A DNA stretch of 64,000 nt from Candidatus Moranbacteria bacterium GW2011_GWE2_35_2- (GCA_000990585.1 LBQD01000002.1:56016-120015); one strand, 5' to 3'; positions 3,122 to 58,728 are shown, counted from the first letter of the stretch. The notes: generated from the sequence alone by a model not told the origin. Translations and numbers: made by a program.

Positions 3122-4024
3122 ATGAAATTGGAAGATGTGCTTTTGGACTATTTGGAATATTTGGAAATTGAGCTTAATCGTTCCGAAAAAACAGTAGAAA
3201 ACTACCGGCATTATTTGGAACGTTTTTTTGCGTGGTCCAATATATGCCAGCCGAAACAAATTACTATGGAATTAGTAAGAAAATATAGGCTTTATCTTAA
3301 TCGTTTAGAGGATAAGAAGGGTAATACATTAAAAAGAATAACTCAAAATTATCATATTATTGCTTTGCGAAATTTTCTTAAATATTTGGCAAAAAAAGAT
3401 ATTTCTTCGCTTTCGGCGGAAAAATTGGAGGTGGGTAGGAATCCAGAGAGGGAAGTTGATTTTCTTTCGGGCGAAGAAATGAGTCGAATTCTCGGAGGTG
3501 CTTCTGGTGAGGATTTAAAAACACTCAGAGATCGCAGCATTTTAGAACTTTTGTTTTCGGCAGGACTTCGCGTAAGTGAGCTTGTAAGTGTTAATCGTGA
3601 TCAATTGAATCTTAAAACTCAAGAATTCAGTGTGCGCGGAAAAGGCTCGAAGGTGAGAATTGTATTTATTTCCGATACCGCTAAATTTTTTTTGCAAAAA
3701 TATTTAAATAAAAGAGTAGACATTGATCAAGCTTTGTTTATTCGAATTGTAAAAAATTGGCAAAATAAGGATGATCTGCGTTTAACTTCACGCAGTATTC
3801 AGCGAATAGTAAAATATTATGCACATAAAGCCGGGATTGTGAAAGATGTTCATCCACATACCCTGCGCCACAGTTTCGCGACTGATTTACTCAGCAACGG
3901 CGCGGATATTCGCTCCGTCCAAGCAATGCTCGGCCACTCCTCAATCACCACTACGCAGATTTATACACATGTTACTAACAAACAATTAAAAGATATCCAC
4001 AAGAAGTTTCATCGAAAGAAATAA
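3122..4024 (+). CDS. xerC: Tyrosine site-specific recombinase XerC/XerD family
   Basis: C-terminal catalytic region HTLRHSFATDLLSNGADIRSVQAMLGHSSITTTQIYTHV (R..H..R..Y motif pattern), with an N-terminal SAM-like core-binding domain. Confidence 0.85.
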   Translation: MKLEDVLLDYLEYLEIELNRSEKTVENYRHYLERFFAWSNICQPKQITMELVRKYRLYLNRLEDKKGNTLKRITQNYHIIALRNFLKYLAKKDISSLSAEKLEVGRNPEREVDFLSGEEMSRILGGASGEDLKTLRDRSILELLFSAGLRVSELVSVNRDQLNLKTQEFSVRGKGSKVRIVFISDTAKFFLQKYLNKRVDIDQALFIRIVKNWQNKDDLRLTSRSIQRIVKYYAHKAGIVKDVHPHTLRHSFATDLLSNGADIRSVQAMLGHSSITTTQIYTHVTNKQLKDIHKKFHRKK

Positions 4025-4100: not shown

Positions 4101-6341
4101 ATGGTAATTATGAATGAATTATTAAAAGAACTTAATTCGGCGCAAAGGGAGGCTGTTCAGGCGACAGAAGGCCCAGTTTTGGTTATTGCTGGGGCTGGAT
4201 CCGGGAAAACACGAGTATTGACTCATCGGGTGGCTTATTTGATTTCAGAAAAAGGTGTGAAGGCGCAAAACATTTTGGCGGTGACTTTTACCAACAAAGC
4301 AGCACAGGAAATGAAAGAGCGAATATCGCAGTTAATAACCAGCAATAATTTGCCAAATGTCGGTACTTTTCACAGTATTTGCGTAAAAATTTTGCGCCGG
4401 GAGATTGACAAATTGGGATACAAAAAGTCCTTTAATATTTTTGATGATCAAGATCAAAAGGTTTTGATGAAAAAAATTGTCAAGGAATTGGAAATTAACA
4501 CTGAACAATTTATTCCCAATTCATTTTTGGGAATAATTAGTAAGGCAAAAAACGAACTTAGAGATGAATATGTTTTTGAGTCTCAAATTGGAGGTTATTA
4601 TGAGGAAATTGTGGCAAAAGTGTATAAGAAATATCAAAAAGAACTTCGGGAAAATAATGCACTGGATTTTGATGATTTGATTCGACTGACAATCGAAATT
4701 TTTCAAAAATTTCCTGATATATTGGAAAAATACCAAAGACTTTTTCAATATATTTTGGTTGATGAGTATCAGGACACCAATCATGCTCAATATACTTTCG
4801 TGAGACTGCTTGCGCAAAAACATTGTAATTTGTGTGTTGTTGGGGATGATTGGCAGTCAATTTACGGTTGGCGACAAGCGGATATTCGTAATATTTTGAA
4901 TTTCGAAAAAGATTATCCGGAAGCAAAAGTGATTAAATTGGAACAAAATTATCGTAGTACACAGATAATTTTAGATGCCGCTTACGGAGTGATTTCTCAA
5001 AATGTCAATCGTAAGGATAAAAAAGTATGGACTGAGAATAAAGGCGGACATTTAATAACATCATTTGAGGCAGAGGATGAACGCGAAGAGGCGGAATATG
5101 TGGCTAACGAAATTAAAAATTTTATTAGTAATCCGCCAGTCGGCGGACAATTTTCAATCCGCCAGTCGGCGGACAATTTCCAAAAAAATTCAAATAATAA
5201 AATTCGAAACTTCAAGCATCAAGAGGTATATAATTATTCTTCTTTTGCGGTTCTTTATCGCACTAACGCGCAATCACGCGCTATCGAAGAATCTTTCTTA
5301 AGAAATAACATCCCTTATCGAATTATTGGCGGCTTGAAATTTTATCAAAGAAAAGAAATCAAAGATATGATTGCCTATTTGCGCTTGATTCAAAATGGCG
5401 CTGACTATATTTCTCTGGAAAGAGTAATTAATGAGCCCAAAAGAGGTATTGGAAAGGCGACTCTGAGTAAGTGGATCGCATATGCTAAAAAGAATGGAAA
5501 GAATTTCATTTCTGTTGGATTAAATCTTAATAAAGATTGCGGATTAAATGACAGTAAAATCGAATCGATTACAAAATTTTGTGAGTTTATCGAAAGAATG
5601 CGCGAATATAAAGGAAAAATAAAAATAGCTGATTTTATCGAGAAAGTATTTATTGAAAGCGGATATGAAAAAAGCTTGTCAAATTTGGGTAGCGATGGGG
5701 AAATAAGAATTGAAAATATTCGCGAATTATTAAGTGTAGCGGGAAAATACGGACAAGAATTAACCGAACAAATGTTGGAATTATTCTTAGAAGAAGTTGC
5801 TCTAGCTTCGGATACTGACAAAATTGAGCAGAGAGAAAATTCGGTACATTTAATGACGTTGCACAGCGCTAAGGGATTGGAATTTCCAGTAGTTTTTATT
5901 GTTGGACTGGAAGAAGGAATCTTGCCACATTCTCGCAGTATGCTCGGTGGAGAAGAAATGGAAGAAGAGCGACGCTTGATGTATGTGGGAATTACCAGGG
6001 CAATGCAGAGAGTTTATCTGATTTTTACACATATTCGTATGATTTTTGGATCAAATCAAGCCAATCCACCCTCTCGATTTCTTAATGATATACCAGCATA
6101 TCTTGTGAATAATAATCAAGATATAATAATTGACAGTAAAAAAAATAATCTTGAAAGTCAGGAAAATGATGATATTAAAAAACAACAATCCGTGGGCTAT
6201 AAAGATGGACAAAGAGTAAAGCACAAAGAATTTGGCGAAGGAGTGATCATCTCTATTAGTGGAGATACTGCAACGGTTGTTTTTCCGAAGCGAGGAATTA
6301 AAAGACTCCCTCTTTTAAGTACACCTTTATCGAAAATGTGA
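4101..6341 (+). CDS. uvrD: ATP-dependent DNA helicase UvrD/PcrA family (superfamily 1)
   Basis: Walker A AGAGSGKTRVLTHR, motif II VDEYQDTN, motif IV VLYRTNAQSR, motif VI LMTLHSAKGLEFPVVF. Carries an internal 26-bp tandem duplication at 5130-5181. Confidence 0.9.
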   Translation: MVIMNELLKELNSAQREAVQATEGPVLVIAGAGSGKTRVLTHRVAYLISEKGVKAQNILAVTFTNKAAQEMKERISQLITSNNLPNVGTFHSICVKILRREIDKLGYKKSFNIFDDQDQKVLMKKIVKELEINTEQFIPNSFLGIISKAKNELRDEYVFESQIGGYYEEIVAKVYKKYQKELRENNALDFDDLIRLTIEIFQKFPDILEKYQRLFQYILVDEYQDTNHAQYTFVRLLAQKHCNLCVVGDDWQSIYGWRQADIRNILNFEKDYPEAKVIKLEQNYRSTQIILDAAYGVISQNVNRKDKKVWTENKGGHLITSFEAEDEREEAEYVANEIKNFISNPPVGGQFSIRQSADNFQKNSNNKIRNFKHQEVYNYSSFAVLYRTNAQSRAIEESFLRNNIPYRIIGGLKFYQRKEIKDMIAYLRLIQNGADYISLERVINEPKRGIGKATLSKWIAYAKKNGKNFISVGLNLNKDCGLNDSKIESITKFCEFIERMREYKGKIKIADFIEKVFIESGYEKSLSNLGSDGEIRIENIRELLSVAGKYGQELTEQMLELFLEEVALASDTDKIEQRENSVHLMTLHSAKGLEFPVVFIVGLEEGILPHSRSMLGGEEMEEERRLMYVGITRAMQRVYLIFTHIRMIFGSNQANPPSRFLNDIPAYLVNNNQDIIIDSKKNNLESQENDDIKKQQSVGYKDGQRVKHKEFGEGVIISISGDTATVVFPKRGIKRLPLLSTPLSKM

Positions 6342-6407: not shown

Positions 6408-6845
6408 TCAAATAGTTTTGGACATCTCGATAATTCCTTGCATCTTGAATCCTTGTTTTTCCCAAAAATCTTTCGCCATAGATTGACGATGAGAGATGAG
6501 ATGAAAATTTTTTATGTCCTTATTTCGTGCAATTTTTTCAGTTTCACGAAAAAGTGCTGTTCCTACTCCATTTTTTCTTAAAGACGGGTCAACTACTATA
6601 TATTCGATGATTAAATGATTCCCGTCTTCCCATGGTTGGATTCGAGAAAAAATAAAACCAATATTTTTTTCATCTTCAGTTGCGATAAAGCAAAATCCTT
6701 TTCCGTTATTGAAAATTTCCACTAATTCTCCTTTTGCAGTTTCCTGATTCCATTTTTCATTATATGGAGCGTTTGTCATTACCTCCAAAAAAAGATTAAT
6801 GATACTATTTATGTCTTTATCGGTTTCAATTTTTTTGATTTGCAT
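6408..6845 (-). CDS. GNAT family N-acetyltransferase
   Basis: Acetyl-CoA binding motif region IVVDPSLRKNGVGTALF (R/Q-x-x-G-x-G/A); size 145 aa. Confidence 0.7.
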   Translation of the reverse strand: MQIKKIETDKDINSIINLFLEVMTNAPYNEKWNQETAKGELVEIFNNGKGFCFIATEDEKNIGFIFSRIQPWEDGNHLIIEYIVVDPSLRKNGVGTALFRETEKIARNKDIKNFHLISHRQSMAKDFWEKQGFKMQGIIEMSKTI

Positions 6846-10592: not shown

Positions 10593-11333
10593 ATGAATTT
10601 AAAAGAAAGACTTAAACAACTGGATTTAGGCGAAAAGGAAATCGAAGTTTATATTTCAATACTTAAGCAAAAGCAAACCACGATCACTAGAATTGCCGAT
10701 TCAGCAGGGATCAAAAGAACTTCGGTTTACCATTGTTTGGAAAATTTGATTAAAAAAGGCTTGATAAGCAGAATAAGCAAAGATGGCAGGAATTATTATA
10801 ACGCGGAAGATCCTAAGGAAAGTTTTAGTAATATTTTGAATGAAAAAAAGGAAATCATATTGTCATTGATTCCGAAAGTAAAAGAAATATATGGACAGTC
10901 TGGGAGTTTTCCTGAAATAAAGATTTATCATAATTTGGCGGGAATTAAGAAGATATTTGAAGATCTTTTGTCATGCAAAGAAAAAATCAATAGATATTAT
11001 CTGTCCGGATTTTTATTGGAAGGTATTCTGGGAAAAGAATTTGTCGATGATTTTGTAATGAAGAGAGTAAAAAAGGGAATTAAAAGTTTCTCTTTGCGAA
11101 CGTTTGCGTATAAACCTGAAAGGGAGAAAGGAGAAATACATTCTAAGCAGCTTCGCGAAGTAAGATTTATTCCGGAAAATGTCATCATAAAGCCATATAT
11201 GGTGATTTATGATGACAAGGTGGTTGTAATTTCCACCAAAGAGGAGAAAATCGGCTTTGTGATTCAATCCAAGGAATATGCTGATGCGCAAAAGGCTCTG
11301 TTTGATATGATTTGGAACAATGCAGCGATTTAG
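10593..11333 (+). CDS. TrmB-family HTH transcriptional regulator (paralog 1 of 3)
   Basis: N-terminal winged helix LGEKEIEVYISILKQKQTTITRIADSAGIKRTSVYHCLENLIKKGLI. Its C-terminal domain ends in a shared FDMIWNN-type motif. Confidence 0.65.
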   Translation: MNLKERLKQLDLGEKEIEVYISILKQKQTTITRIADSAGIKRTSVYHCLENLIKKGLISRISKDGRNYYNAEDPKESFSNILNEKKEIILSLIPKVKEIYGQSGSFPEIKIYHNLAGIKKIFEDLLSCKEKINRYYLSGFLLEGILGKEFVDDFVMKRVKKGIKSFSLRTFAYKPEREKGEIHSKQLREVRFIPENVIIKPYMVIYDDKVVVISTKEEKIGFVIQSKEYADAQKALFDMIWNNAAI

Positions 11334-11347
11334 ATTAAAAAATATTT

Positions 11348-11656
11348 ATGAAAAAATATCATAAAATCGATGAAAAAAAGGAAAAGCTGGCATATCGAAC
11401 TTTGGCGACTTTTCGGAGCAAGGTTTTTGATGTTGTGCGCGAAATTCCAAAGGGAAAAACTTTGACATACAAGCAAGTGGCGGAAAAAGTTGGAAGTCCG
11501 AAGGCTTATCGGGCGGTGGGCAACATCCTGAACAAAAATTTCGATCCCGAAATCCCGTGCCATCGCGTCATCCGTTCGGACGGAAAAATCGGCGGGTATA
11601 ATCGCGGTGAAGATAAAAAACGGGAAATTTTGGAAAAAGAAAGGAAAACAGGGTGA
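11348..11656 (+). CDS. ogt: Methylated-DNA-protein-cysteine S-methyltransferase, DNA-binding/active-site domain (Ogt/MGMT-like, ~100 aa)
   Basis: Active-site motif IPCHRVIRSDGKIGGY preceded by the AYRAVGNIL helix. Confidence 0.8.
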   Translation: MKKYHKIDEKKEKLAYRTLATFRSKVFDVVREIPKGKTLTYKQVAEKVGSPKAYRAVGNILNKNFDPEIPCHRVIRSDGKIGGYNRGEDKKREILEKERKTG

Positions 11657-11671
11657 ATATTTACCCTATAG

Positions 11672-11857
11672 TATTTACTTATATGTAAAAAGATTATCGA
11701 TAGAAAGATATTAATAATTAATGACGCGACTGGATCAGGCGCGACTCTCAATGAAACCGCGCGCAAAATCCGCAATATAGCCGATAAAAATATTAAAATT
11801 AGTGGATATTCGGTCGTGGGAAGTTATAAGGGGTTCGATGTGATTAGTGAAGTGTAG
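11672..11857 (+). pseudogene. 3' remnant of a ComF-like phosphoribosyltransferase gene (no start codon)
   Basis: Open frame without initiator encodes ...INDATGSGATLNETARKIRN..., a PRPP-binding-loop motif typical of ComF/PRTase C-termini. It ends at TAG 11855-11857. Confidence 0.5.
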
Positions 11858-11889
11858 GTCTTGTTGAAAAATAAAAAAACAAACAGAAT

Positions 11890-11985
11890 AATGAAAATGC
11901 TTTTGAAAAAATATTTTGGGTTTGAGGAGTTTCGGCCTTTGCAGGGGGAGATTATTTCCAATACGTTGGCAGGGAGGGTGATCTT
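11890..11985 (+). pseudogene. Duplicated 5' fragment of recQ (about 95 bp, ~90% identical to 13409-13503)
   Basis: Encodes [29 protein letters not shown] versus authentic Rec[30 protein letters not shown]. It then diverges and terminates. Confidence 0.8.
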
Positions 11986-12042
11986 GCAAAATATGCGATT
12001 GTATGATATTATACATTTAGTATAACAAATACGTTATACAAT

Positions 12043-12642
12043 ATGTTAAATTATACTAAAATTATGTCGAAAATGGCTAAAAAACTGAATATTTTACATC
12101 AAAGCGGGCAAACGGTTTTTTCTACCAATGAGCTGATGCTACATTGGAGTATCGAAAATAAAAAGATTTTGTATACTCAAATTTCCCGCGCCAAAGAGCA
12201 AGGTTTTTTGAGAACAATCCAGCGAGGTTTGTATGCTCTGGATGGTTTGGAAGTTGACAGACTGGAGTTGGCGGGAAACCTGAAAAAAAAATCGTACATA
12301 AGTTTTGAAACTGTCCTGGCAAAAAACGGATTAATCAACCAGTGGTACGGTTCATATTTTTTGGCATCGGACAGGGAAGCGGATATTGAAAATGAGTATG
12401 GAAAATTCAATTACAGAAAACTGTCTGAAAAGATTTTGAATAATCGTTTGGGGATAATCGATAGCGGTCATTATTTTACAGCTGGCACCGAAAGAGCTAT
12501 CTGCGATTATTTTTACAAAGTCGGCTTTCAACAGCTTGATGACTTGGAGGAAATCGACCAAAACAAGCTTATTGAAATATCTAAAATTTATCACAATAAA
12601 AGGTTGGAAAAAGATATTTTAAAATTAACTAAATTGTTATGA
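12043..12642 (+). CDS. Putative AbiEi-like antitoxin / transcriptional regulator, partner of the nucleotidyltransferase below
   Basis: 199-aa ORF whose stop overlaps the start of the AbiEii-like gene (ATGA overlap). Position and size fit type IV TA antitoxins; no strong motif recognised. Confidence 0.45.
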   Translation: MLNYTKIMSKMAKKLNILHQSGQTVFSTNELMLHWSIENKKILYTQISRAKEQGFLRTIQRGLYALDGLEVDRLELAGNLKKKSYISFETVLAKNGLINQWYGSYFLASDREADIENEYGKFNYRKLSEKILNNRLGIIDSGHYFTAGTERAICDYFYKVGFQQLDDLEEIDQNKLIEISKIYHNKRLEKDILKLTKLL

Positions 12643-13355
12643 AATTGGACAAAAGCGAACACAGAAGAATAATGCTAAAAATATTGGGAGATATTTCAGC
12701 CGATCCTCTCCTGGCCAATAATCTTGGTTTTAAAGGCGGCACTGCCTGTTATTTTTTGCATGGTTTGGATCGATTTTCAGTCGATCTTGATTTTGATTTG
12801 CTAGACAAAGAAAGGGAAGAGGAAATAAAAAAACGTCTTTTGGAAATTTTGAGTAAATATGGGTCAATCAAAACAAAAACTGCTATTAAGGTCAGGTATT
12901 CCGATGATTGTCAGGCTTTGAAAATAGATCTTTCAAACAGATATGAAAACAACAAGCGGAATAAATATCAAGTCAAGGATATAGTCTCGGGAATATCCTT
13001 GAAAGTTTTGCGCAAAGAAGATATTTTTGCCCATAAATTGGTGGCGCTCACTGACAGGAGCGCTTCCGGTCAAAGTGGCACTGCTTTTATCGCAAATCGC
13101 GATTTGTATGATATTTATTTTTTCTTCAAAAACGGATGGCATTATAACAAAGAAATTATTGAGTATCAAACAAATAAAAAAGTTAAAGATTATTTGGGAT
13201 ATGCCTCTAAGTTTATAGAAAAATATTCCAACGAGTCGAATATTTTGGACAGACTCGGAGATTTGGTGGATGATGAAAAAAAAGATTGGGTTAAAAAAAA
13301 TCTGAAAAGCGAAATATTGAAACAGTTGGCGATAGAAGTTAAATCATTGGATTAA
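12639..13355 (+). CDS. AbiEii/DUF1814-family nucleotidyltransferase toxin (type IV TA / abortive infection)
   Basis: Signature LGFKGGTACYFLHGLDRFSVDLDFDLLD matches the conserved GGTAL...RFSxDLDF motif of AbiEii nucleotidyltransferases. Confidence 0.7.
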   Translation: MKLDKSEHRRIMLKILGDISADPLLANNLGFKGGTACYFLHGLDRFSVDLDFDLLDKEREEEIKKRLLEILSKYGSIKTKTAIKVRYSDDCQALKIDLSNRYENNKRNKYQVKDIVSGISLKVLRKEDIFAHKLVALTDRSASGQSGTAFIANRDLYDIYFFFKNGWHYNKEIIEYQTNKKVKDYLGYASKFIEKYSNESNILDRLGDLVDDEKKDWVKKNLKSEILKQLAIEVKSLD

Positions 13356-13408
13356 GATATTTTCGGATTTATGTAGGATAACTTACCAGACAAATAATTT
13401 TACAAAAA

Positions 13409-15571
13409 ATGAAAACACTTTTGAAAAAATATTTCGGGTTTGAGGAGTTTCGGCCTTTGCAGGAGGAGATTATTTCCAATATTCTGGCGGGGAGGGACAC
13501 TTTTGTTTTGATGCCTACCGGCGGAGGAAAATCTCTTTGCTATCAGCTTCCCGCGCTCAAATTTCCCGGAATCACGATCGTGATTTCTCCTTTGATCGCC
13601 CTGATGAAAGACCAGGTTGATTCGCTGAAGGCCAACGGTGTGGCGGCGGAATTTTTGAATTCTTCGCTTTCTGTCGGGGAAATCGGGAAAATAAAAGATG
13701 AAGCGCAGAAGGGAAAGGTCAAAATTCTTTACATTGCTCCGGAACGTATGGCGATGCGGGATTTCGAGGATTTTCTGATCGGACTGAAACCCAGTTTGAT
13801 CGCGGTGGACGAAGCGCATTGTATTTCGGAGTGGGGACATGATTTCCGTCCGGATTATCGCAATCTTCGAAGGCTCAAGGATATTTTTCCCGGCGTGCCG
13901 ATTGTGGCGCTTACCGCGACGGCAACGGAAAAGGTACGAGAAGATATTTTGAGTCAGCTCAATTTCCGAAACCACAAAACATTCATTTCCAGTTTCAATC
14001 GGGAAAATTTGTTCTTTCGCGTGGTGGAAAAAAGAAACGCTTTTCCTAAATTATTGAAATTATTGGAAAACCGCAAGAAGGACTCCGTGATAATTTATTG
14101 TTTTTCCAGGAAAGATACGGAAAAAGTGGCCGCTGATTTGCGGGCGGAAGGTTTTTCGGCGTTGGCATACCATGCCGGATTGGATTCAGCGAAGCGGAAA
14201 AAGGCGCAGGAGGCGTTTATTCGCGATAAGGCGAATATTATCGTAGCGACAATCGCTTTCGGAATGGGAATTGACAAACCGAATGTCCGCTTGGTGGTGC
14301 ATTATACTTTTCCCAAATCACTGGAAGGATATTATCAAGAAGTCGGGCGCGCGGGACGGGATGGACTTCCGGCGGAATGCGTGATGTTTTACACCTATGC
14401 CGATGCGCGTAAGCACCAATATTTCCTAAACGACATTTCCGATGAGAAATTACGCGCTCAAACGGAGAAAAAACTGCAAGAAGTGATGGATTATGCCGAT
14501 TTGGAATTTTGCCGGAGGCGGCATCTTCTTTCCTACTTTGGTGAAAAATATGAAAAGGAAAATTGTGGCGCATGCGACGCGTGTCTTTCGGATAAAAAAG
14601 AAAAAGAAATGTTTGACGCGACAATTGTGGCGCAAAAGATTCTTTCCGCCATCGTCCGAACCGGACAAAGATTCGGCGCGGGATATATTGTTGACATATT
14701 GAAAGGAAAAAATATCAAGGCGATACGGGATAGAAAACACGACAAACTTTCGGTTTTCGGCATTGTTTCCGATTTTTCAGCCGATCAACTTCGGGAAATA
14801 ACTCGTTCGCTTGTCGGAATGGGATTGGTTGAAAAAGCGTCCGGGGAATATCCTGTTTTGCAATTGACACCCCGAGGCAAGAAATTTTTAAACGACAAGG
14901 AGAAGTTGGAATTGCCGAAACCGAAAGAGGAGGAGATTTTTGATGACAGCTTCAAGGTTGAGGATGATTTTAAATATGACGGACAATTGTTTGAAAAATT
15001 GCGCTCGCTTCGGCGGGAGATTGCCAATAACTTGAACGTTCCGCCATTTGTGGTTTTTTCTGATGTATCGTTGCGGGAAATGGCGTATTATTTTCCCTCA
15101 AATGAAACCGATTTTTTGCGGATTGCGGGTGTGGGGGAATTGAAGCTCAAAAATTTTGGAAAAAAGTTTTTGCAGGAAATAAACCGGTATGCAAAAGAAA
15201 AAAACATTGCGCCCAAAGAATTTTCTTCTATTAGCGAGAAAAAAATAAAAGTGAAAAAAGAAATCGGAAGTGTTTCCGGTGGAACTTTTCGAATTACGCG
15301 GGAATTCTTGAAAAAGAAAATTTCACTAGCTGAAATTGCCAAAGAGCGTCACTTGACCGAAGGAACGATTATTTCACATATTGAAAAAATAATCAATTCC
15401 GGAGAAAAATTGGATATTGACTATTTAAAACCGGAAAAAGAAATTTTTAAAGAAGTCAAAAAAGCTTTTGAGAAATGCGGAACGGGCGCCTTAAGTCCGG
15501 TATACAGGCAACTAAATGGAAAATATGATTACGATATGATTCGGCTGGTAAGGGTGTTTTTGGAAAAATAA
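13409..15571 (+). CDS. recQ: ATP-dependent DNA helicase RecQ
   Basis: Walker [18 protein letters not shown]; DEAH box [20 protein letters not shown]; Zn-binding [12 protein letters not shown]...CGACDAC; C-terminal HRDC-like region. Confidence 0.9.
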
Positions 15572-15640
15572 AAAAATCCCGGAAACTTTGCTGTCATATT
15601 TGACAGACGCGATGAGTTTGCAGGATTTTTTCTGCGGAAT

Positions 15641-16006
15641 CTAGTGTAATTTAGATAAGGTACACTCTAATTCATTTAGGAATATCGGTTTTTGTACGCA
15701 GAGTATTTTGTGTTGTTTGGAAAAATTCAAACATTCCTCTGAGATATAGCCAGTGATAAGAATAATTTTTTTTTCAATTCCCGGATTGTCTTTCATTGCT
15801 AATCTGCAGACCTCCAGCCCGTTCATAGCAGGCATTCCGACATCTAGGATGATGGCGTGAAAATTTTCAAGTTTTATTTTTAACAATGCTAAATTTCCTT
15901 CAGACACAGTGATTACTTCCCATTTTTTTCCGAAAAAAGTTTTAAATATTTCCAAAATTGTTATTTCATCATCAACTACTAAAATTTTTTTCTTTTTATT
16001 TAATAT
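15641..16006 (-). CDS. Single-domain response regulator (CheY-like receiver)
   Basis: Receiver motifs KKKKILVVDDE and ILDVGMPAMNGLEV. The ORF finder began at an internal TTG (15955). The upstream extension holds the DD pocket and a perfect AAGGAG RBS (16013-16018), but the only available initiator is a non-canonical ATA at 16004-16006. Confidence 0.6.
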   Translation of the reverse strand: MLNKKKKILVVDDEITILEIFKTFFGKKWEVITVSEGNLALLKIKLENFHAIILDVGMPAMNGLEVCRLAMKDNPGIEKKIILITGYISEECLNFSKQHKILCVQKPIFLNELECTLSKLH

Positions 16007-16186
16007 TTTCTTCTCCTTTTTAAGGAACTATTTGAAAACCCCTCATCATTTCTTTGTTAATTACTACGAAAAAGATATTTTAAAATTTCCCGATTATTTT
16101 TTGCTGAAATATTTCATTTGTGTATATTAAGAAATAAAAAATATTTTCGAAAAATCGTCACCTTTGCCGAAGAACAAAACATCGAC

Positions 16187-16258
16187 ATGATCCTCGAAAC
16201 CGAACACGAAAAAGTCATGGCCGACATCGCCCTCCTAAAATCCTTTCGCGGGAAATAA
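16187..16258 (+). repeat. Repeat copy A: a gene 3'-end fragment (…ILETEHEKVMADIALLKSFRGK*) followed by a hairpin; paralogous to 18975-19046
   Basis: About 75 bp, ~88% identical to the second copy; both end with TAA and a GC hairpin. Confidence 0.7.
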
Positions 16259-16308
16259 AAAAGCAGGGGCTATATTAAGCTCCCTGCTGATTTATTTATT
16301 AACCTTGA

Positions 16309-16836
16309 TTATCGTTGATTATTAATATGCTTACCACTAAGCAATCCCTCCATTAAGCCCTTCCAGTTTTTTATTAATTTTTCGTCCTCCACAATTAATG
16401 CATTGTAGCATTCCGGATAAATCATTACATCGCCCACAGTAAAAGGGGCGCCATTAGAAGATCCCATCCAAAGATCAAATGCTTTGCCAATAGCATCTTG
16501 ATGATGATTTGCATCTGTAATGATTCCAATTTTCTTTACTCCATACTGCAATGCTTTTAATACAATTACGAGACCAGTGGCTGCTTCAACGCAAACTTCT
16601 TCATCATGAGGCGAAGGAAGATTTATATCGGTTAATACAATATCAAATTCTGCAAGATTCATGCTTGGTTTGTCATGCCAACAATCACGAAATGTCTCAA
16701 AGAAATCAATGAAACTTTCCATAATAGTTAGGTCATGATCTGATAACTGCTTTCTTGCAGCTTCTTGATGAATAGGATTGTCTTCGATAATTAAAATTTT
16801 CATAGCAACCTCCTTCTCAGTTTTTATTAATAACAT
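16309..16836 (-). CDS. Hypothetical protein with a degenerate receiver-like N-terminus
   Basis: MKILIIEDNP... start resembles a REC domain and FDIVLTDINLP resembles the phospho-acceptor region, but the rest is not a canonical REC. It overlaps the upstream 68-aa ORF by 20 nt, so they are probably in one operon. Confidence 0.4.
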   Translation of the reverse strand: MLLIKTEKEVAMKILIIEDNPIHQEAARKQLSDHDLTIMESFIDFFETFRDCWHDKPSMNLAEFDIVLTDINLPSPHDEEVCVEAATGLVIVLKALQYGVKKIGIITDANHHQDAIGKAFDLWMGSSNGAPFTVGDVMIYPECYNALIVEDEKLIKNWKGLMEGLLSGKHINNQR

Positions 16837-17023
16837 CTATGGCCCTTGCCTGAACTTCTTCATCAAGCTCGCTTATTTTGAAAAACAACTCATTCTCCAT
16901 GCCAAGATAAATAGATTGAATAACCTTATCCATAATTGCAAATACACATTTGCAATTATAAATTTCTCTCCCAGTATCATTAGCAGAAAACAACCTCATT
17001 ATAAATTGCCTCTTCTCTGTCAT
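16817..17023 (-). CDS. Small hypothetical protein
   Basis: 68-aa ORF, first gene of the minus-strand operon that runs divergently from the TrmB-like regulator. Confidence 0.3.
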   Translation of the reverse strand: MTEKRQFIMRLFSANDTGREIYNCKCVFAIMDKVIQSIYLGMENELFFKISELDEEVQARAIDVINKN

Positions 17024-17208
17024 AGCAAATCTCCTTGCGTTTTAAGCCTGCTTACTGTTTAATTGTTAAAAAACTTCCTAAGTTATATTAAGATTTTTAT
17101 CTTAACAAGCTATTATATTCCCAAATCAACAAAATGTCAATAATTCCGTGTGTTTTATTGATATATTCATAATATTGCCTTAAAATAAACCTTATTGCAC
17201 TCTAAATA

Positions 17209-18069
17209 TTGACAATTTTATCGTTGTTTGTTAAGATGGCAGTAAATATGAGCCTAGAAAAAGACCTACAATCTATCGGCCTGGAAGAAAAAGAAGCCAA
17301 AATATACTTGGCCGCTCTTGAGCTTGGGTCGACCAATATCCAAGATCTGGCCGAAAAGGCGGACATCAAGCGCAGTACGGTCTATGAGATTTTGAAAAAA
17401 CTTGAGCCGATGGGTCTGATTACCGAATCCATCAAGGGTAAAAGGAAAACATACATCGCTTCCGGACCGGAAAAACTCAAAAAAAATATCAAAGAAAAAG
17501 AACAACTCATAAATCATATCCTTCCCGAGCTAAAATCTTTAAACAACACCGGAAATATAAAACCTAAGATAACTTATTACGAAGGCCGAGACGGACTCCG
17601 ACAAATTTATAATCTAGCGCTCGAAACCACCACTAAAAAAGTTGACTGGGTTTCGCCTATTCGGGCAGTCATGGACACGGTGGGTGAAAAGTTTCTAGAA
17701 GAATATATCGAAAAAAGAGCCAAGGAAAAATATTGGATCCGATCTATCCAAATCACTGAGCAACAAGTCGACACATACAAATATTTGGACCCAACAACTT
17801 TTGACAAAACCTACCGCCGCGTAAAATTTTCTCCGCCTGGCATCGATATTCCCAACACTATGGCTATTTGGGATAACAAAGTAGCTGTTATTAGCACCCG
17901 AAAAGAAGGATTTGGCTTCATCATTGAAAGCACTGACTATACCCGCTCCATGAAAGTTTTCTACGATCTCCTTTGGAACATCAGCAAATCCTGGGGCAAC
18001 ATGGATTTCAACAACAAAAACCCGCAAAATTCCGAGTTGACTGAAAAAGATGATACTTATTGGAAATAA
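17209..18069 (+). CDS. TrmB-family HTH transcriptional regulator (paralog 2 of 3)
   Basis: N-terminal wHTH LEEKEAKIYLAALELGSTNIQDLAEKADIKRSTVYEILKKLEPMGLI. C-terminal region ends in FYDLLWN, like the other paralogs. Confidence 0.65.
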   Translation: MTILSLFVKMAVNMSLEKDLQSIGLEEKEAKIYLAALELGSTNIQDLAEKADIKRSTVYEILKKLEPMGLITESIKGKRKTYIASGPEKLKKNIKEKEQLINHILPELKSLNNTGNIKPKITYYEGRDGLRQIYNLALETTTKKVDWVSPIRAVMDTVGEKFLEEYIEKRAKEKYWIRSIQITEQQVDTYKYLDPTTFDKTYRRVKFSPPGIDIPNTMAIWDNKVAVISTRKEGFGFIIESTDYTRSMKVFYDLLWNISKSWGNMDFNNKNPQNSELTEKDDTYWK

Positions 18070-18132
18070 AAAAAACCTTCTCCCATCTCAATTTACCCAA
18101 CATAACCAATCCCAATCTTTAAAAAATAATCA

Positions 18133-18168
18133 TTTAGTCAATTATATGCATATGCACAATATTGACTA
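18133..18168. repeat. 36-bp imperfect palindrome (ttagtcaattatatgcatatgcacaatattgactaa), upstream copy
   Basis: Internal dyad TTAGTCAAT/ATTGACTAA around TATGCATATGCA. A second copy (~80% identical) sits at 18888-18923, so the two flank gene 18234..18851. Confidence 0.75.
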
Positions 18169-18233
18169 ATATATCATTCGTAGCTATTATCATATTGCAT
18201 TTAACTTACTATATGCCAATCAAAAAATAAACT

Positions 18234-18851
18234 ATGCGAAAACCCTCCTTTTCAAAAAAATCACAGAATCTGCTTGAAAACTTCATCGAATCCGACACCT
18301 TCACTGCCACTGCCGGCAAATTTTTATTAATGACCTTAGCGTTAGGTGGAATTGTTTTTGCCGGAGCACTTGCTCCCGGCATCCTGCTGGCCACAAAAAA
18401 GAAAAAGCATTTTCATAAATACAATCCCAAACAGCTTCAAAATGCTATCTATAATCTCAAGAAGAGAAATCTAATTGAAATCATTCAAGAGGGTAACACC
18501 AAAACAAAAGTCCGTCTCACTAACAAGGGCAATGAGCGAGTCCGCGAATTTTGTTTTGAGACATTGAGGATAACCAAACCGAAGCGCTGGGACAAAAAAT
18601 GGCGGATTCTGATCTTTGATATACCCACCAGCCCTAAGATATATAACCAGGCACGCAATGCATTGCGAGAAAAAATAAAAAAACTGGGTTTCTACCAGAT
18701 GCAAAAAAGCGTTTGGGTCTGCCCCTATGAATGCGAGGATGAGATTCTTTTTGTCGCCGAAGCCTTTAGTGTTCAAAAATATATCGAGATTATCACCGCT
18801 GAAAAACTTCTGCATGAAAATTACCTCAAGAAAAAATTCAACTTAAACTAA
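18234..18851 (+). CDS. Hypothetical protein with an N-terminal TM segment, a winged-helix-like region and a C-terminal PaaX-like region (tentative)
   Basis: TM FLLMTLALGGIVFAGALAPGILLA; wHTH-like NLKKRNLIEIIQEGNTKTKVRLTNKG; C-terminal WRILIFDIPTSPK...LGFYQMQKSVWVCPYE resembles PaaX_C / Cas2-like folds. Assignment is by resemblance only. Confidence 0.35.
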   Translation: MRKPSFSKKSQNLLENFIESDTFTATAGKFLLMTLALGGIVFAGALAPGILLATKKKKHFHKYNPKQLQNAIYNLKKRNLIEIIQEGNTKTKVRLTNKGNERVREFCFETLRITKPKRWDKKWRILIFDIPTSPKIYNQARNALREKIKKLGFYQMQKSVWVCPYECEDEILFVAEAFSVQKYIEIITAEKLLHENYLKKKFNLN

Positions 18852-18887
18852 AGTTCACTAAATTAAATATCATTCCTATCCACCAAT

Positions 18888-18923
18888 TAGTCAGATATGT
18901 GCATATGCATAAAATTGACCAAC
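18888..18923. repeat. 36-bp imperfect palindrome, downstream copy (ttagtcagatatgtgcatatgcataaaattgaccaa)
   Basis: Paralogous to 18133-18168. Confidence 0.75.
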
Positions 18924-18974
18924 AAGTTAACTTTGATGATGTACAACTACTATCATTTTTGTTAACAATTTTGC

Positions 18975-19046
18975 ATCCTCGAAACCGAACACGGAAAAGT
19001 CATGGTTAACATCACTCTCCTAAAATCCTTTCGCGGGAAATAAAAA
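18975..19046 (+). repeat. Repeat copy B: the same gene 3'-end fragment (…ILETEHGKVMVNITLLKSFRGK*) followed by a hairpin
   Basis: Aligns with 16187-16258. Its open frame is only 24 codons, so it is a remnant. Confidence 0.7.
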
Positions 19047-19158
19047 AGGTGGAGAACTGCGATGAGTTTTCCACCTTCTAGTAATCTCGATGAGAGAGGC
19101 AAGAAAGTTAGATTCAACTTTCTTGCCCAAACCACAATCACCTCTATTTTTAATCACC

Positions 19159-19440
19159 TTATTCAAATTTTATTCCTAATTGAACAAGCTTATTTCTTGC
19201 CGACTCCAGTATTTTTGTGGATTTCGTTAAATATAAGTGTGCGTTATTAGCTCTTTCTTGAGAACATTTTAACTCATATTCTAATCCACACAGACCATCA
19301 GCTTGTTGCTGCAGGCGCCCTTCCAATCTTTCTAATCTATATTCAAAATATTTTTTATCGCGTTCAACTTTACTTCTAGCCATCTCGAATTCATCTATTA
19401 AGGACTTAATTTCACTAAAAAATAATCTTGGTCTTAGCAT
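19159..19440 (-). CDS. Hypothetical coiled-coil protein
   Basis: 93-aa ORF rich in heptad-like E/K/R/L pattern (RLERLEGRLQQQADGL...). Confidence 0.35.
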   Translation of the reverse strand: MLRPRLFFSEIKSLIDEFEMARSKVERDKKYFEYRLERLEGRLQQQADGLCGLEYELKCSQERANNAHLYLTKSTKILESARNKLVQLGIKFE

Positions 19441-19610
19441 TGTTTTGCTCCTGTAGTTGAGGTGATTTTAAAGGAACTGCTTGTCATGATTCTTTTCCTG
19501 TTCTCATCATAACTCTATAGTATAGCACCATTTGGACACTATTTCAATAGTTTACTTGATATTTTAGTAATTCTGTGCTAAACTTGATATATAAGTATAA
19601 GATTTAAAAA

Positions 19611-20657
19611 ATGAACCTCACTGAACTCGACAAAAAAATCCTTTTTGAACTGGACAAGGACGGCCGGGCTAGTTTTTCCGAAATTGCCCGCATAATCGGT
19701 TCTACGCCTCAAGTCGTGAAATACCATTTTGAGCAGATGATGGAAAAAGGCTTTATCAAGCACTTTTGGGCTTTCACCGACTACGACAAGCTGGATTATT
19801 CTTTCTTTTGGGGCTATTGGCTGAAATTCGCTGGCCTAACCAAAGACAAGGAAACTGAGATGTATGCCTATTTCAACGCTCACCAGAACATTCCGATTAT
19901 CCAGCGCGCTGATGGCTACGCCGATGTTTTGATCGGAATTATTAGTCGTGACATTTTCCATCACAATGAAGTCTTGCAAGACATTTTTTCTAAATACGGC
20001 CAATTCATCACCATGTCCGATATTTTCATTGGCCTTGGTTTTGTGAAATTCCCTCGCACATATCTCGGCAATAAACCTAATGAATTCCAAAAATTCGCTC
20101 TGTCCGGCGGAACCACCGAAAAAATCAAACTGGCTGAAATTGATCGCAAAATTATTTCCTTGCTTTTGATTGACGGACGAATGGAATTTACTAAAATCGC
20201 CAAAACTTTGGGCGTTGGCACCGGTCTGGTGCACAAACATTATAATAAGCTGGAAAAAAGTGGCGTTATTACCAAAATAACTTTTACTTTAGATTATCAA
20301 AAAATCGGACTCATACTTTATCGCTGTTGCTTTAAACTCGTACAATTTGATCAAGCTCGCATTGATGAGTTATATAAATTCTGTTGCCTGCATCCCAACA
20401 TCATCAACTATGTCAAGGGAATAGGAAGCTGGGAACTACTTCTGGACATTGAAGTAGAAAACCGCGAAGCTTTGCGTGATATCATTCGCGAACTCAAAAA
20501 CCAATTCCGCGATGTCATCCAAAAAGTCGAAATCAATGAAATCTACCAAATGGACAAATTCACCCAAATGGCCATCGAATATCCCGACTTGAAAAATGAA
20601 AAGGGAAATGATAGGAAGGAAGAGCAAAATGATAAGAATGATCATTATTGGGATTAG
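19611..20657 (+). CDS. Transcriptional regulator with tandem duplicated Lrp/AsnC-type HTH modules
   Basis: Two copies of the AsnC-like HTH signature: LDKKILFELDKDGRASFSEIARIIGSTPQVVKYHFEQM and IDRKIISLLLIDGRMEFTKIAKTLGVGTGLVHKHYNKL. Confidence 0.6.
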   Translation: MNLTELDKKILFELDKDGRASFSEIARIIGSTPQVVKYHFEQMMEKGFIKHFWAFTDYDKLDYSFFWGYWLKFAGLTKDKETEMYAYFNAHQNIPIIQRADGYADVLIGIISRDIFHHNEVLQDIFSKYGQFITMSDIFIGLGFVKFPRTYLGNKPNEFQKFALSGGTTEKIKLAEIDRKIISLLLIDGRMEFTKIAKTLGVGTGLVHKHYNKLEKSGVITKITFTLDYQKIGLILYRCCFKLVQFDQARIDELYKFCCLHPNIINYVKGIGSWELLLDIEVENREALRDIIRELKNQFRDVIQKVEINEIYQMDKFTQMAIEYPDLKNEKGNDRKEEQNDKNDHYWD

Positions 20658-20715
20658 GACGTATGGTATAATTTATGTGTAGGATAAAAATATTGAAATA
20701 AAATAAAAAATAGAT

Positions 20716-35565: not shown

Positions 35566-36327
35566 ATGTTTGAACAGTCATTGATTCAATTAGGTTTGAG
35601 CTATACGCAGGCGGCAGTTTATGAAGCCTTGCTTAAAAGTGGCCCATTGCCGGCTGGAAAGATTGCCAAGAAAACTGAATTTAAAAGAGGATTGATATAT
35701 AAAATATTGGAAGAATTGGGGGAAAGCGGACTAATTGAGAAAAAAGAAGAAGAAAATAAGGTGGCGATTTTTGAGGTAAAACACCCTTTGCAATTGCGTG
35801 ATTTTGCTGAAAAAAAGCAACAAGAGGCGCGGGATGCCAAGTTGGCGTTGGAAGGAGTTTTACCAGCAATTGTTTCCGAATTCAATTTGGTGTCGCAAAA
35901 ACCGGGGATTTTGTTTTTTGAAGGGGAAGAAGGTATCAGAGAAGTGTTGGCAGATTCCCTTAGTAGTCGTAGTGAAATTTATACTTATGCTGATATGGAA
36001 TCAGTGGTTAAATATATGGATAAGATAAATAAAGATTATGTTAAAAAGAGAAATAAGCTGGGATTAAAAAAGAAAGTTGTGATGATTGATAATGAATTTA
36101 CCAGAGAGTATATGAAAAAGTATTATAAAGAGACGACTGATGTTCGATTTATTGATCATGAATTATACCCATTCAGTGCGCTTACAGAAATATATGATGG
36201 AACAATTTCATATGTGACTGCGGAAAAAGAGAATAAGATTGGAGTTATCATTAAGAATGAAAGTATATATAAAATGCAAAAAGCACTTTTTGAGTTCGTC
36301 TGGAATAATGCAAAAAAAATAGATTAA
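35566..36327 (+). CDS. TrmB-family HTH transcriptional regulator (paralog 3 of 3)
   Basis: wHTH LSYTQAAVYEALLKSGPLPAGKIAKKTEFKRGLIYKILEELGESGLI; C-terminal FEFVWNNAKK motif shared with the paralogs; followed by terminator 36343-36370. Confidence 0.65.
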   Translation: MFEQSLIQLGLSYTQAAVYEALLKSGPLPAGKIAKKTEFKRGLIYKILEELGESGLIEKKEEENKVAIFEVKHPLQLRDFAEKKQQEARDAKLALEGVLPAIVSEFNLVSQKPGILFFEGEEGIREVLADSLSSRSEIYTYADMESVVKYMDKINKDYVKKRNKLGLKKKVVMIDNEFTREYMKKYYKETTDVRFIDHELYPFSALTEIYDGTISYVTAEKENKIGVIIKNESIYKMQKALFEFVWNNAKKID

Positions 36328-57047: not shown

Positions 57048-58304
57048 TTATCCTAGTTTCAAATTCGCGTCGGCTTCCAGATTTTTCCAGTTTTGCTGGG
57101 CGTTTTCTTTTTCTTGGGCGGACATTTTTTGCCAGCGAAAAGCGGCGGCGCTAGCGATCATGGCGGCGTTGTCGCCGGTTAGTGAAATATCCGGAATTAT
57201 ATAGGAGGTGGCGGGTAATTTTTCTTCTATATTTTTTCCCAGTTGTTTGCGAAGCTCTTTATTGGCACTCACTCCACCGGCAAGCATTATTGTTTTGGGG
57301 TTGTACTGCTGGGCGGCTTTGATGGTTTTGTGGACAAGGACATCGATGGCGGCTTGCTGGAATTCACAAGCCATTTCTTCAATGACCAATGACCAATTAT
57401 CAATTTTCGATTTATTTTCTTGAAATTTTTTCATTTGGTACAAGACCGCGGTTTTAAGTCCGGAAAAAGAAAAATTGAAATCTTTCGAGTGTAGCATCGG
57501 ACGGGGCAGCTTTATTTTATGGGAAGAATTTGTTTTTGATTTTGAAATTTTGTCATTGGAAATTGTTTGGAAATTGGAAATTGGAAATTTGAAATTTGCA
57601 GCAGCAGCTGCTGCAATAGCTGGTCCTCCTGGATATCCCAAATCCAGAATTCTCGCCACTTTGTCAAAAGCTTCGCCGGCGGCATCATCCAATGTTTGTC
57701 CGACGATTTCATATTGCAGATGATCCTTCATCAAAACTAATTGCGTGTGGCCACCGGAAACGACCAAGCATAAGACAGGGAATTTTATACTGGAATTTTT
57801 AATTTTTAATTTGTAATTTTTATTGAATTTTAAATTATTTAATTTTGAACTAATATGTTTTTGTTTTGAAATTTGATTATTTGAACTTGAAAATTGTTTG
57901 GAAATTGGAAATTGAGAATTGGAAATTTCGCCAATGAAATTGGCGTATATGTGTCCTTCAATATGATGAATTCCAAGAAGCGGTTTTTTCCATTTGTATG
58001 CTAATGTCTTCGCGGTGTTGGTGCCGACAAGAAGTGCCGGAATAAGTCCCGGTCCGGCGGTAACGGCAATTAGGTCAATTTCTTTGGGAGTAATTTTAGT
58101 AGTGTCGAGAGCTTCTTTGAGGACGGGAAGAATATTTTTGAGATGTTCGCGCGCCGCCAAATTCGGCACTACGCCGCCCCATTTAGCATGAAGTTTTACT
58201 TGTGAAGAAACGATATTGGAAAGCACGTTCAAATTGTCATTATCAAAACTAATGACAGCAATCGCGGTTTCATCACAAGATGTTTCGATGGATAAAATAT
58301 TCAT
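57048..58304 (-). CDS. tsaD: tRNA N6-adenosine threonylcarbamoyltransferase TsaD (Kae1/Gcp family) with two low-complexity insertions
   Basis: SCDETAIAVI, HHIEGHIY, VVSGGHTQL, DDAAGEAFDKVARILDLGYPGGP, FSFSGLKTAV. Insertions (…ISNSQFPISKQFSSSNNQISKQKH…KIKNSSIKFP and AAAAAANFKFPISNFQTISNDKISKSKTNSSHKIKL) make it 418 aa versus a typical ~340. Confidence 0.85.
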   Translation of the reverse strand: MNILSIETSCDETAIAVISFDNDNLNVLSNIVSSQVKLHAKWGGVVPNLAAREHLKNILPVLKEALDTTKITPKEIDLIAVTAGPGLIPALLVGTNTAKTLAYKWKKPLLGIHHIEGHIYANFIGEISNSQFPISKQFSSSNNQISKQKHISSKLNNLKFNKNYKLKIKNSSIKFPVLCLVVSGGHTQLVLMKDHLQYEIVGQTLDDAAGEAFDKVARILDLGYPGGPAIAAAAAANFKFPISNFQTISNDKISKSKTNSSHKIKLPRPMLHSKDFNFSFSGLKTAVLYQMKKFQENKSKIDNWSLVIEEMACEFQQAAIDVLVHKTIKAAQQYNPKTIMLAGGVSANKELRKQLGKNIEEKLPATSYIIPDISLTGDNAAMIASAAAFRWQKMSAQEKENAQQNWKNLEADANLKLG

Positions 58305-58405: not shown

Positions 58406-58480
58406 ATGGTAGCGCTACGGAGAATCGAACTCCGGTTACCAGGATGAAAACCTGGTGTCCTAACCACTAGACGATAGCGC
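58406..58480 (-). tRNA. tRNA-Glu (anticodon TTC), CCA encoded
   Basis: Reverse-strand GGCGCTATCGTCTAGTGGTTAGGACACCAGG TT-TTC-AT CCTGG TAAC CGGAG TTCGATT CTCCG TAGCGCT A CCA. Confidence 0.75.
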
Positions 58481-58728
58481 CTTGCATATTATGTTTATAT
58501 CATCAAAAACCTAATTTTTAATAATATTTTTCTTATTTGATAATCTCTCCTTTGAGCATCGAGGATGCCACCCTGGCGGGTGGTCACCTGTTAGGGTGAA
58601 AAACCTGGTGTCCTAACCACTAGACGATAGCGCCAAAATTGAAATTTAACTTTATCCAGCATAACACAGATAAAAAATAAATCAAGGGTTAGTGGCAGAT
58701 TTTTTATTTTGGGTGTAAAATTACAATT

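Follow-up and report, generated by a model that had tools for sequence, protein, structure and literature searches.

How did a toxin-antitoxin (TA) gene pair come to lie between two copies of the beginning of a single helicase gene? The question is raised by a locus in a 64,000-nucleotide stretch of DNA (the window, whose first letter is position 1) from a groundwater genome of a Moranbacteria bacterium, a member of the Candidate Phyla Radiation (CPR). In the window, an abiEi-abiEii pair is located between a truncated copy of the recQ 5' end, which we call recQ', and an intact recQ gene, as had been proposed from the sequence alone. That sequence-only reading explained the arrangement as an insertion with a target duplication that has since diverged. 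Our analysis favours a different route, at somewhat better than even confidence: homology-facilitated illegitimate recombination (HFIR) of transformed DNA, and not transposition, would have placed the AbiE cassette within the initial 90 nt of recQ, which is probably transcribed from the promoter of abiE.

The abiE pair and the duplicated recQ start

The left direct repeat, recQ' (11887-11978, plus strand), is an orphan copy of the recQ 5' end, and the right one is the 5' end of the intact gene (13405-13496, plus strand). Repeat search and pairwise alignment showed that the two are 92 nt long, 90% identical and spaced 1518 nt apart, and blastn of the window against itself returned the pair with E=5.9e-29. 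The sequence-only reading had already noticed the duplication at ~90% identity, and its coordinates (11890-11985 and 13409-13503, ~95 bp) were a few bases off. recQ' covers about -4 to +88 of recQ and has its ATG at 11891. The homology begins ~4 nt 5' of the ATG and ends after codon 29, just ahead of the Walker A coding region; past the repeat, the reading frame of recQ' enters unrelated cassette sequence and meets a stop at 12025. The segment between the repeats holds abiEi and abiEii only, with no other gene, and no recombinase gene was found there among the open reading frames (ORFs) of the window. The arrangement recurs in over 20 assemblies of this species made independently of one another (NCBI, JGI, ENA and Logan), and we therefore dismissed the possibility of an assembly artefact. 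A difference in abiEii-recQ spacing in L009 was merely another gene call on identical sequence.

Two other readings of the repeat were rejected. recQ' is not a conserved small ORF, since its frames diverge after codon ~29 in each lineage and the copy in the relative L096 has no start, and we regard it as a pseudogene. Integron/attC readings and readings as an integrative mobile element exploiting Xer (IMEX/dif) were dropped because the repeats are recQ coding sequence.

The two ORFs between the repeats (12043-12642 and 12639-13355, both on the plus strand) overlap, as had been described, by the 4-nt stop/start sequence ATGA at 12639-12642, with the antitoxin gene first. The second of them, abiEii, encodes a protein of 238 aa, a predicted toxin of the DUF1814 type with a Pol-beta-type nucleotidyltransferase (NTase) domain. 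The proposed DUF1814/AbiEii assignment was confirmed by a profile hidden Markov model (HMM) match above threshold (Pfam PF08843, E 8.5e-18; 65.6 bits where the cut-off is 22.5) and by PADLOC model PDLC02324 (E 3.5e-55, model positions 3-222 of 231). AbiEii toxins carry four NTase motifs: I (hGG), II (R..DhD), III (KLxAxxxR) and IV (+DxxD) (Dy et al. 2014, PMC3985639). All four are found here, as FKG33G34TA, R45FSVD49LD51, K133LVALTDR140 and R154D155LYD158, and their residues are invariant across 25 homologues and were also aligned to JHP933; G and D stand 2 residues closer to each other than in the Streptococcus agalactiae protein. The AlphaFold2 (AF2) model of AbiEii, with a predicted local distance difference test (pLDDT) score of 87.7, gave as top Foldseek matches in the PDB the structures of JHP933 (4o8s/4ok0, E 3e-8, TM-score 0.55-0.63), MenT4 (6y56) and TglT/MenT3 (6j7n).

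The first gene, abiEi (12043-12642), encodes a predicted antitoxin with a winged helix-turn-helix (wHTH) domain and a C-terminal domain, presumed to be an autorepressor. Sequence profiles are divided on the assignment to AbiEi suggested from the sequence: the PADLOC AbiEi model matches over the full length (E 2.2e-30), and the protein falls below the curated cut-offs of both Pfam AbiEi_4 (20.4 bits vs 25) and NCBIfam TAA_AbiEi (42.7 vs 150). A phmmer search of AbiEi against PDB sequences gave no meaningful match. The AF2 model (pLDDT 94.3) has the two-domain AbiEi fold, an N-terminal wHTH followed by the C-terminal domain, and its top PDB matches are AbiEi of S. agalactiae (6y8q, E 3.6e-7, TM-score 0.54-0.59) and Rv2827c (1zel). 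The true start of abiEi is probably the ATG at 12064 (MSKMAKK..., 192 aa) rather than that at 12043, because nearly all AbiEi homologues are 189-196 aa long.

Compared with the orthologues in L099, a relative described below, the ratio of nonsynonymous to synonymous substitution (dN/dS) is 0.067 for abiEi and 0.090 for abiEii. The HMM matches, the ATGA overlap, motifs I-IV, the predicted folds and these dN/dS values of 0.07-0.09, the mark of purifying selection, together identify the pair as a genuine and functional-looking member of the AbiE type IV toxin-antitoxin/abortive-infection family, in agreement with the two-gene cassette that had been predicted. The genes thus belong to an already known family and are ordinary AbiE members, though highly diverged; AbiE pairs in Patescibacteria have been noted earlier (bioRxiv 10.1101/2024.03.08.584096).

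A consensus scan placed a predicted abiE promoter at 11984-12012 on the plus strand (TTGCAA, 17 nt, TG-TATTAT, with a near-consensus extended -10 element). Its position coincides exactly with the left boundary of the conserved cassette, where homology to L099 begins (11983); related cassettes in L185, L186 and L105 have the same layout, and this segment would act as the promoter of the pair. An operator-like inverted repeat (12011-12065) follows, between the -10 element and the probable start of abiEi, with 15-nt arms at 12011-12025 and 12051-12065, which are 25 nt apart and 87% complementary. This candidate operator resembles the IR1-N27-IR2 arrangement bound by S. agalactiae AbiEi (PMC3985639). 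With the start at 12064, the second arm falls immediately 5' of the abiEi start codon.

The recQ gene itself (13409-15571, plus strand) is intact and encodes 720 aa. RecQ matches TIGR01389 over its full length (745 bits), has the domains DEAD, Helicase_C, RecQ_Zn_bind, RQC, HRDC and HTH_40, and shows a dN/dS of ~0.1. The gene starts 53 nt 3' of the abiEii stop. Because no terminator-like site was predicted in this gap (13355-13409) and the native upstream region now lies ahead of the dead stub, a shared transcript of abiE and recQ is probable, made from the promoter that AbiEi would repress. If so, a DNA-repair helicase is now under an autoregulated toxin-antitoxin promoter.

Relatives and turnover at recQ

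How old is the insertion, and what do other genomes carry at this site? In a RecQ search of GTDB species representatives, the closest proteins were 56-66% identical and there was no shared synteny, so these genomes were unhelpful for finding an empty site. Contigs were fetched for closer RecQ proteins from a protein search, and nine lineages were compared at recQ. In L098 (RecQ 85% identical by global alignment), the order is ogt, a full-length phosphoribosyltransferase (PRTase) gene, recQ', the first abiEi codons, a 3' fragment of ogt (ogt'), a minus-strand gene for 186 aa, a TrmB gene and recQ. L096 and L187 (RecQ 88% by global alignment) have the same layout minus ogt and the PRTase gene, which have been deleted. 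Window positions 11691-12090 align with L098 5946-6343 at 87.8% identity, and the recQ'/abiE junction is identical in the window, L096/L187 and L098. abiE was therefore inserted before these lineages split; that the event is ancient, as had been supposed, is borne out by this junction, common to three lineages with RecQ proteins 85-88% identical.

L096 and L098 afterwards lost the greater part of abiE, which was replaced by the ogt' fragment, a gene for ~190 aa and TrmB. At the replacement join, abiEi codon ~9-16 is fused to ogt at -99 from its stop, essentially without homology, and homology resumes in recQ. A further gene end was thereby duplicated, the second at this locus: ogt/ogt' (91 nt, 85%). 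This nested duplication of the ogt 3' end (L098 4958-5048 and 6350-6440; L096 6319-6417) flanks the PRTase gene, recQ' and the abiEi start, and the ogt' fragment of L098 is nearer to the ogt of the window (88.9%) than the full-length ogt of L098 is (78.6%).

More distant is L099 (RecQ 77%), in which the order is MerR, DUF4325, recQ', abiEi, abiEii and recQ. Its recQ' stub is shorter (-22 to +36), is of L099's own sequence type, and is followed by a 44-nt filler (6540-6583) with hairpin potential (CTCCGCCTTCGTTAAAGCTATGGCGAGACGAAGCGGGCTTCAGC), which lies between the stub and the abiE promoter. L100 (RecQ 76%) has MerR, DUF4325 and recQ, with neither cassette nor stub, and L102, L103 and L189 likewise have neither abiE upstream of recQ nor a recQ' stub. 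Thus the stub is present in 4/4 lineages in which abiE, whole or as a remnant, lies upstream of recQ and in 0/4 relatives without (L100, L102, L103 and L189). The empty site expected by the sequence-only reading, ogt-comF-recQ, was absent from every relative examined; instead, the recQ flank holds several different cassettes, and the region upstream of recQ is a turnover hotspot among these relatives. Elsewhere, a NTP_transf_2/HEPN pair lies immediately 3' of recQ in L100 (10218-11211), an AbiEii-like gene with a 194-aa partner is convergent with recQ in L189 (4103-5381), and a second AbiEi/AbiEii pair stands ahead of a metallo-beta-lactamase (MBL)-fold gene in L096 (16761-18088). The recQ flanks seem to collect toxin-antitoxin-like modules.

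The cassette has a history distinct from that of the gene that it adjoins. Between the window and L099, the cassettes are 84-85% identical in nucleotides with a synonymous divergence (dS) of 0.8-1.0, as against 73% and a dS of 2.2 for recQ. Gapless identity is 80-92% over 11991-13340 and 57-78% on both flanks. Because the cassette dS is below that of recQ and the identity has sharp edges, the segment 11983-13355 behaves, by this sequence comparison, as a compact, self-promoted unit of ~1.4 kb that would have been exchanged after the lineages diverged. Related cassettes in L185 and L186 (AbiEii 73-74%) occur in other contexts, for example ahead of relA/spoT, and have no flanking repeats; repeats are therefore not obligatory. 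The closest repeat-flanked relative of the cassette among the matches listed is L105, in which the repeats are the 3' end of a TrmB-like gene and are unrelated to the recQ repeat. There is therefore no common att core. Concerted evolution was sought in the window clade with the 88-nt stub and functional copies from three genomes. These differ by ~7-15% without clear grouping, and the date of the duplication and the roles of donor and recipient were left unassigned because 88-nt copies hold too little signal.

The recQ gene is a recombination mosaic among the window, L096 and L098: in 150-nt windows over 13409-16100, identity ranges from 67% to 100%. The response-regulator flank at 15901-16089 is 99.5% identical to L096, though recQ overall is ~85% identical, and this points to very recent exchange. 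The whole region 16090-20715 that follows is missing from L096. Within it is a third gene-end repeat (16190-16263 and 18975-19048; 74 nt, 92%), the duplicated 3' end of a 46-aa ORF (16118-16258) whose product ends in ILETEHEKVMADIALLKSFRGK. Each copy precedes a different hairpin, and together the copies bracket a 2.7-kb abiE-free block with minus-strand genes for 175 aa and 68 aa, a TrmB-like gene and a PaaX_M-domain gene. Far from the locus, 35 nt of the 5' half of a tRNA-Glu gene (minus strand, 58407-58481) are perfectly repeated 153 nt away (58447-58481 and 58600-58634), which may represent either a scar of the att type or a piece of a tRNA gene. Near this repeat, 57527-57597 resembles 57852-57928 (79%).

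On the left, the neighbour of the rearranged segment is an ogt-like gene (11348-11656, plus strand) that encodes the catalytic/DNA-binding domain of an O6-alkylguanine-DNA methyltransferase with the active-site motif PCHRV (PF01035, 1.5e-30; TIGR00589, 83 bits). It is followed by a remnant of a PRTase gene (11672-11857, plus strand). That such a remnant lies without a start codon upstream of recQ' had been seen correctly; its description as ComF-type did not hold up. The frame holds the last ~55-61 codons of a wHTH-PRTase gene of the PRTase-CE type, its translation includes INDATGSGATLNETARKIRN and ends in SEV at the stop codon, and 55 aa of it match residues 273-327 of L098:5129-6112, a protein of 327 aa, at 85% identity. 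This full-length protein has an N-terminal wHTH (HTH models) and a PF24390 PRTase-CE domain (2.5e-7), and it scores 18 bits with the ComF model TIGR00201 against a cut-off of 233.55. A family-model search of the remnant itself gave no ComF match. Relative to L098, the window has kept the ogt-PRTase intergenic region and lost ~820 nt, from about -25 to codon ~265 of the PRTase gene, and what is left is a decayed pseudogene.

Many paralogous TrmB-like wHTH and wHTH-PRTase genes (~326-348 aa) lie around recQ in the clade, for example at 10593-11333, 17209-18069 and 35569-36312 of the window and among the paralogues of L098 and L099. A divergent pair consisting of a minus-strand gene for ~175-192 aa and a TrmB gene also recurs, 5' of recQ in L096 and L098 and 3' of recQ in the window and L098.

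Routes by which the cassette may have reached recQ

What route could leave a dead gene start on one side of a cassette and an intact gene on the other? In the HFIR model, DNA carrying the abiE cassette together with its own recQ 5' end would have entered an ancestor of this Moranbacteria lineage. A homologous crossover within recQ and an illegitimate join at the opposite end would have kept recQ intact by means of the imported 5' end, which would now stand directly behind abiEii. The resident recQ start and its native upstream region would have been abandoned as the dead stub recQ' beside the wHTH-PRTase gene, which a deletion would later have shortened. Since the two copies of the repeat would come from donor and recipient, their 10% divergence need not measure age.

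We favour HFIR because recQ is a mosaic, because the replacement in L096 and L098 has the anatomy of such an event, because a third gene-end repeat lies nearby, and because the repeats share no att core. The nested orphan gene ends, the replacement of the cassette in sister lineages and the mosaic recQ are signs that imported DNA often recombines, with conserved genes as its anchors. Precedents for HFIR have been described (PMC5361080), and natural competence has been demonstrated in Saccharibacteria, another patescibacterial group (PMC10633639).

Several points weigh against HFIR. Competence has been demonstrated for Saccharibacteria only, not for Moranbacteria (PMC10633639). A donor-type locus, with abiE directly 5' of recQ and no stub, was found in none of the relatives examined, and of the original abiE insertion the product alone is visible. 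The similarity between the window and L099 ends at the abiEii stop and does not reach into recQ, which a direct transfer by HFIR would not predict, and the first 30 nt of the L099 stub match L099 recQ, as they would after local duplication or gene conversion. Moreover, the same cassette stands at recQ in two lineages although the recQ dS (2.2) far exceeds that of the cassette (0.8-1.0). This suggests a target preference at recQ, which favours a site-directed or repeat-guided mechanism.

Do direct repeats flank AbiE pairs at other loci too? We surveyed 33 distant AbiE loci among the metagenome matches listed for an AbiEii alignment query, mostly 36-45% relatives, with L105 and L106 close. Direct repeats (E<=1e-6) tightly bracket the AbiE pair in 8 of these 33 listed loci and in 4 of 121 shifted controls of the same geometry (Fisher p=5e-4). 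Among the bracketing repeats are a radC-like 5' end in L141, a tRNA 3' end in L142 and, in L154, the last part of a convergent gene (its 3' end). Gene-end repeats around AbiE could be generic recombination scars or a cassette-specific feature. In L159, an AAA_14/DUF4143 ATPase gene and the AbiE pair are set apart by three repeat copies of ~40-50 nt (1456-1505, 3213-3252 and 4710-4759), which gives the look of tandem cassettes. AAA_14/DUF4143 ATPase genes also occur near AbiE or recQ in L096, L099, L100, L103, L105, L155 and L185.

Site-specific integration would account for a target preference at recQ, though we think it rather unlikely. In this scenario, a small element without an integrase would have been moved by a tyrosine recombinase encoded elsewhere, and the recQ copies would be attL and attR. 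Such an element would be comparable to those of the CIME type (cis-mobilizable). The repeats of target sequence that flank the cassette and the re-supplied gene 5' end are as in dusA islands (PMC4482086), and the cassette edges are discrete. Two lineages whose left neighbours differ have the same cassette family at recQ, and the cassette is younger than the gene. Among the distant loci, the enrichment of flanking repeats, the tRNA 3' end in L142 and the three copies in L159 that separate two cassettes, resembling tandem accretion, agree with it as well. However, no integrase lies inside the 1.5-kb unit or next to it; the tyrosine recombinase gene nearest to it is XerC/D-like, lies ~9.5 kb upstream and is also present in other assemblies of the species. 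The repeats of the closest relatives have no shared core (recQ 5' end vs TrmB-like 3' end), and repeat length and end point vary (+88 for the window and its clade, +36 for L099). The L185 and L186 cassettes (73-74% identical) have no repeats, and non-AbiE segments at the same locus bear gene-end repeats of the same type.

A Campbell-type cycle, which we think unlikely, would start from the repeats themselves: recombination of recQ' with recQ would loop out a circle of the cassette and one repeat, which in another cell would re-integrate by a single homologous crossover at the conserved recQ 5' end and so bring back the order stub, cassette, gene, with repeats that are in part local. This accounts for the recQ preference, for the discrete edges and for an L099 stub that begins as L099-type sequence. 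Homologous recombination is evidently active, as the recQ mosaic shows, and loss between the repeats would restore a clean recQ as in L100. The origin of the first stub is left unexplained, however, and 36-92 nt of homology at 75-90% identity is poor for RecA. The repeat end points vary, and in L099 the 44-nt filler separates stub and cassette; no circles were observed, and the cassette is present in all of the more than 20 same-species assemblies.

A broader proposal, decidedly speculative, is that AbiE pairs are minimal mobile cassettes (~1.4 kb with promoter, antitoxin and toxin) that slot repeatedly into conserved gene ends and duplicate 20-100 nt while the target gene is kept intact, by the action of an unrecognised trans-acting recombinase or by repeat-guided integration of circles. 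If true, it would explain both the gene-end repeats (recQ 5', radC-like 5', tRNA 3' and TrmB-like 3') close around about a quarter of distant AbiE loci and the arrival of the same cassette at recQ twice.

Insertion of a mobile cassette at a staggered cut, with a ~92-bp target-site duplication whose copies were identical at first and are now 10% diverged, is close to the explanation offered by the sequence-only reading, and we consider it very improbable. Direct repeats of target sequence do immediately bracket the insert, and the event is old enough for the copies to have diverged, the junction being common to three lineages. However, there is no transposase, and the best terminal inverted match is 20 nt at 75% and AT-rich. 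Repeat lengths of 20-102 nt across loci are unlike those of any transposase. The right repeat begins 50 nt past the abiEii stop, so that the element would need extra non-target DNA, and this spacer is not conserved in L099. Together with the illegitimate gene-end duplications at the same locus and the recQ mosaic, the lack of a transposase and of terminal repeats makes a diverged target duplication unlikely. Least credible of all is a tandem duplication of the recQ start that later captured unrelated DNA including abiE, since, although this would fit a hotspot in which differing cassettes fill the recQ'-recQ space, recQ' is directly joined to abiE promoter sequence in every lineage examined, even after abiE loss, the stub is missing from relatives that lack abiE upstream of recQ, and a recQ'-recQ tandem without a trace of abiE was seen in 0/9 lineages.

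Comparison with known systems

With this locus, the CPR, in which defence and TA biology has barely been explored, gains an AbiE system that is well supported and highly diverged. The locus is of interest for its history of recombination and a possible regulatory link with recQ rather than for the genes themselves: with its nested orphan ends (recQ', ogt' and the small-ORF 3' end), the cassette replacement and the mosaic recQ, it is a readable record of module gain and loss in reduced genomes.

The AbiE systems of S. agalactiae and Lactococcus lactis (PMC3985639) share with it the antitoxin-first bicistron, the 4-nt ATGA overlap, a wHTH antitoxin, inverted repeats at the promoter and a DUF1814 NTase toxin with motifs I-IV. 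It differs from them in that identity to solved AbiEi proteins is 11-16% and in that the pair, known here from its sequence, is chromosomal in a CPR host, wedged in recQ and probably co-transcribed with it.

The MenAT systems of Mycobacterium tuberculosis (MenT3/TglT Rv1045 and MenT4 Rv2826c) belong to the same superfamily of NTase toxins, and our models match 6y56, 6j7n and 1zel; MenAT4 also has the same antitoxin fold (the AbiEi-like Rv2827c). Identity is ~16%, however, and the toxin here has 238 aa vs ~290 aa. MenT toxins are reported to nucleotidylate the acceptor stem of tRNA, which for this AbiEii serves as an analogy only. By the example of its relatives, AbiEii may bind GTP and/or modify tRNA and so arrest translation.

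As to anatomy, the dusA-specific islands (Farrugia et al. 2015, PMC4482086) also leave an orphan native 5' end on one side and, on the other, a functional gene whose 5' end, and probably whose promoter, comes from the element, with imperfect repeats of the target sequence. Those islands, however, are 10-100+ kb long, with their own integrase next to att and a core of ~17-21 bp, whereas the present unit is 1.4 kb with no recombinase and no shared core. SXT/R391 at prfC is another island that sits at a gene 5' end and re-supplies the gene start. A conserved-gene anchor, an illegitimate far join, displaced fragments and nested relics are likewise features of effector-immunity displacement in the T6SS (type VI secretion system) of Vibrio cholerae and of the orphan 3' ends of Rhs and contact-dependent inhibition (CDI) systems (Kirchberger et al. 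2017, PMC5361080). In those arrays, 3' toxin ends or immunity genes are displaced, whereas the displaced piece in the window is a housekeeping helicase gene's 5' end, with a TA pair as the module.

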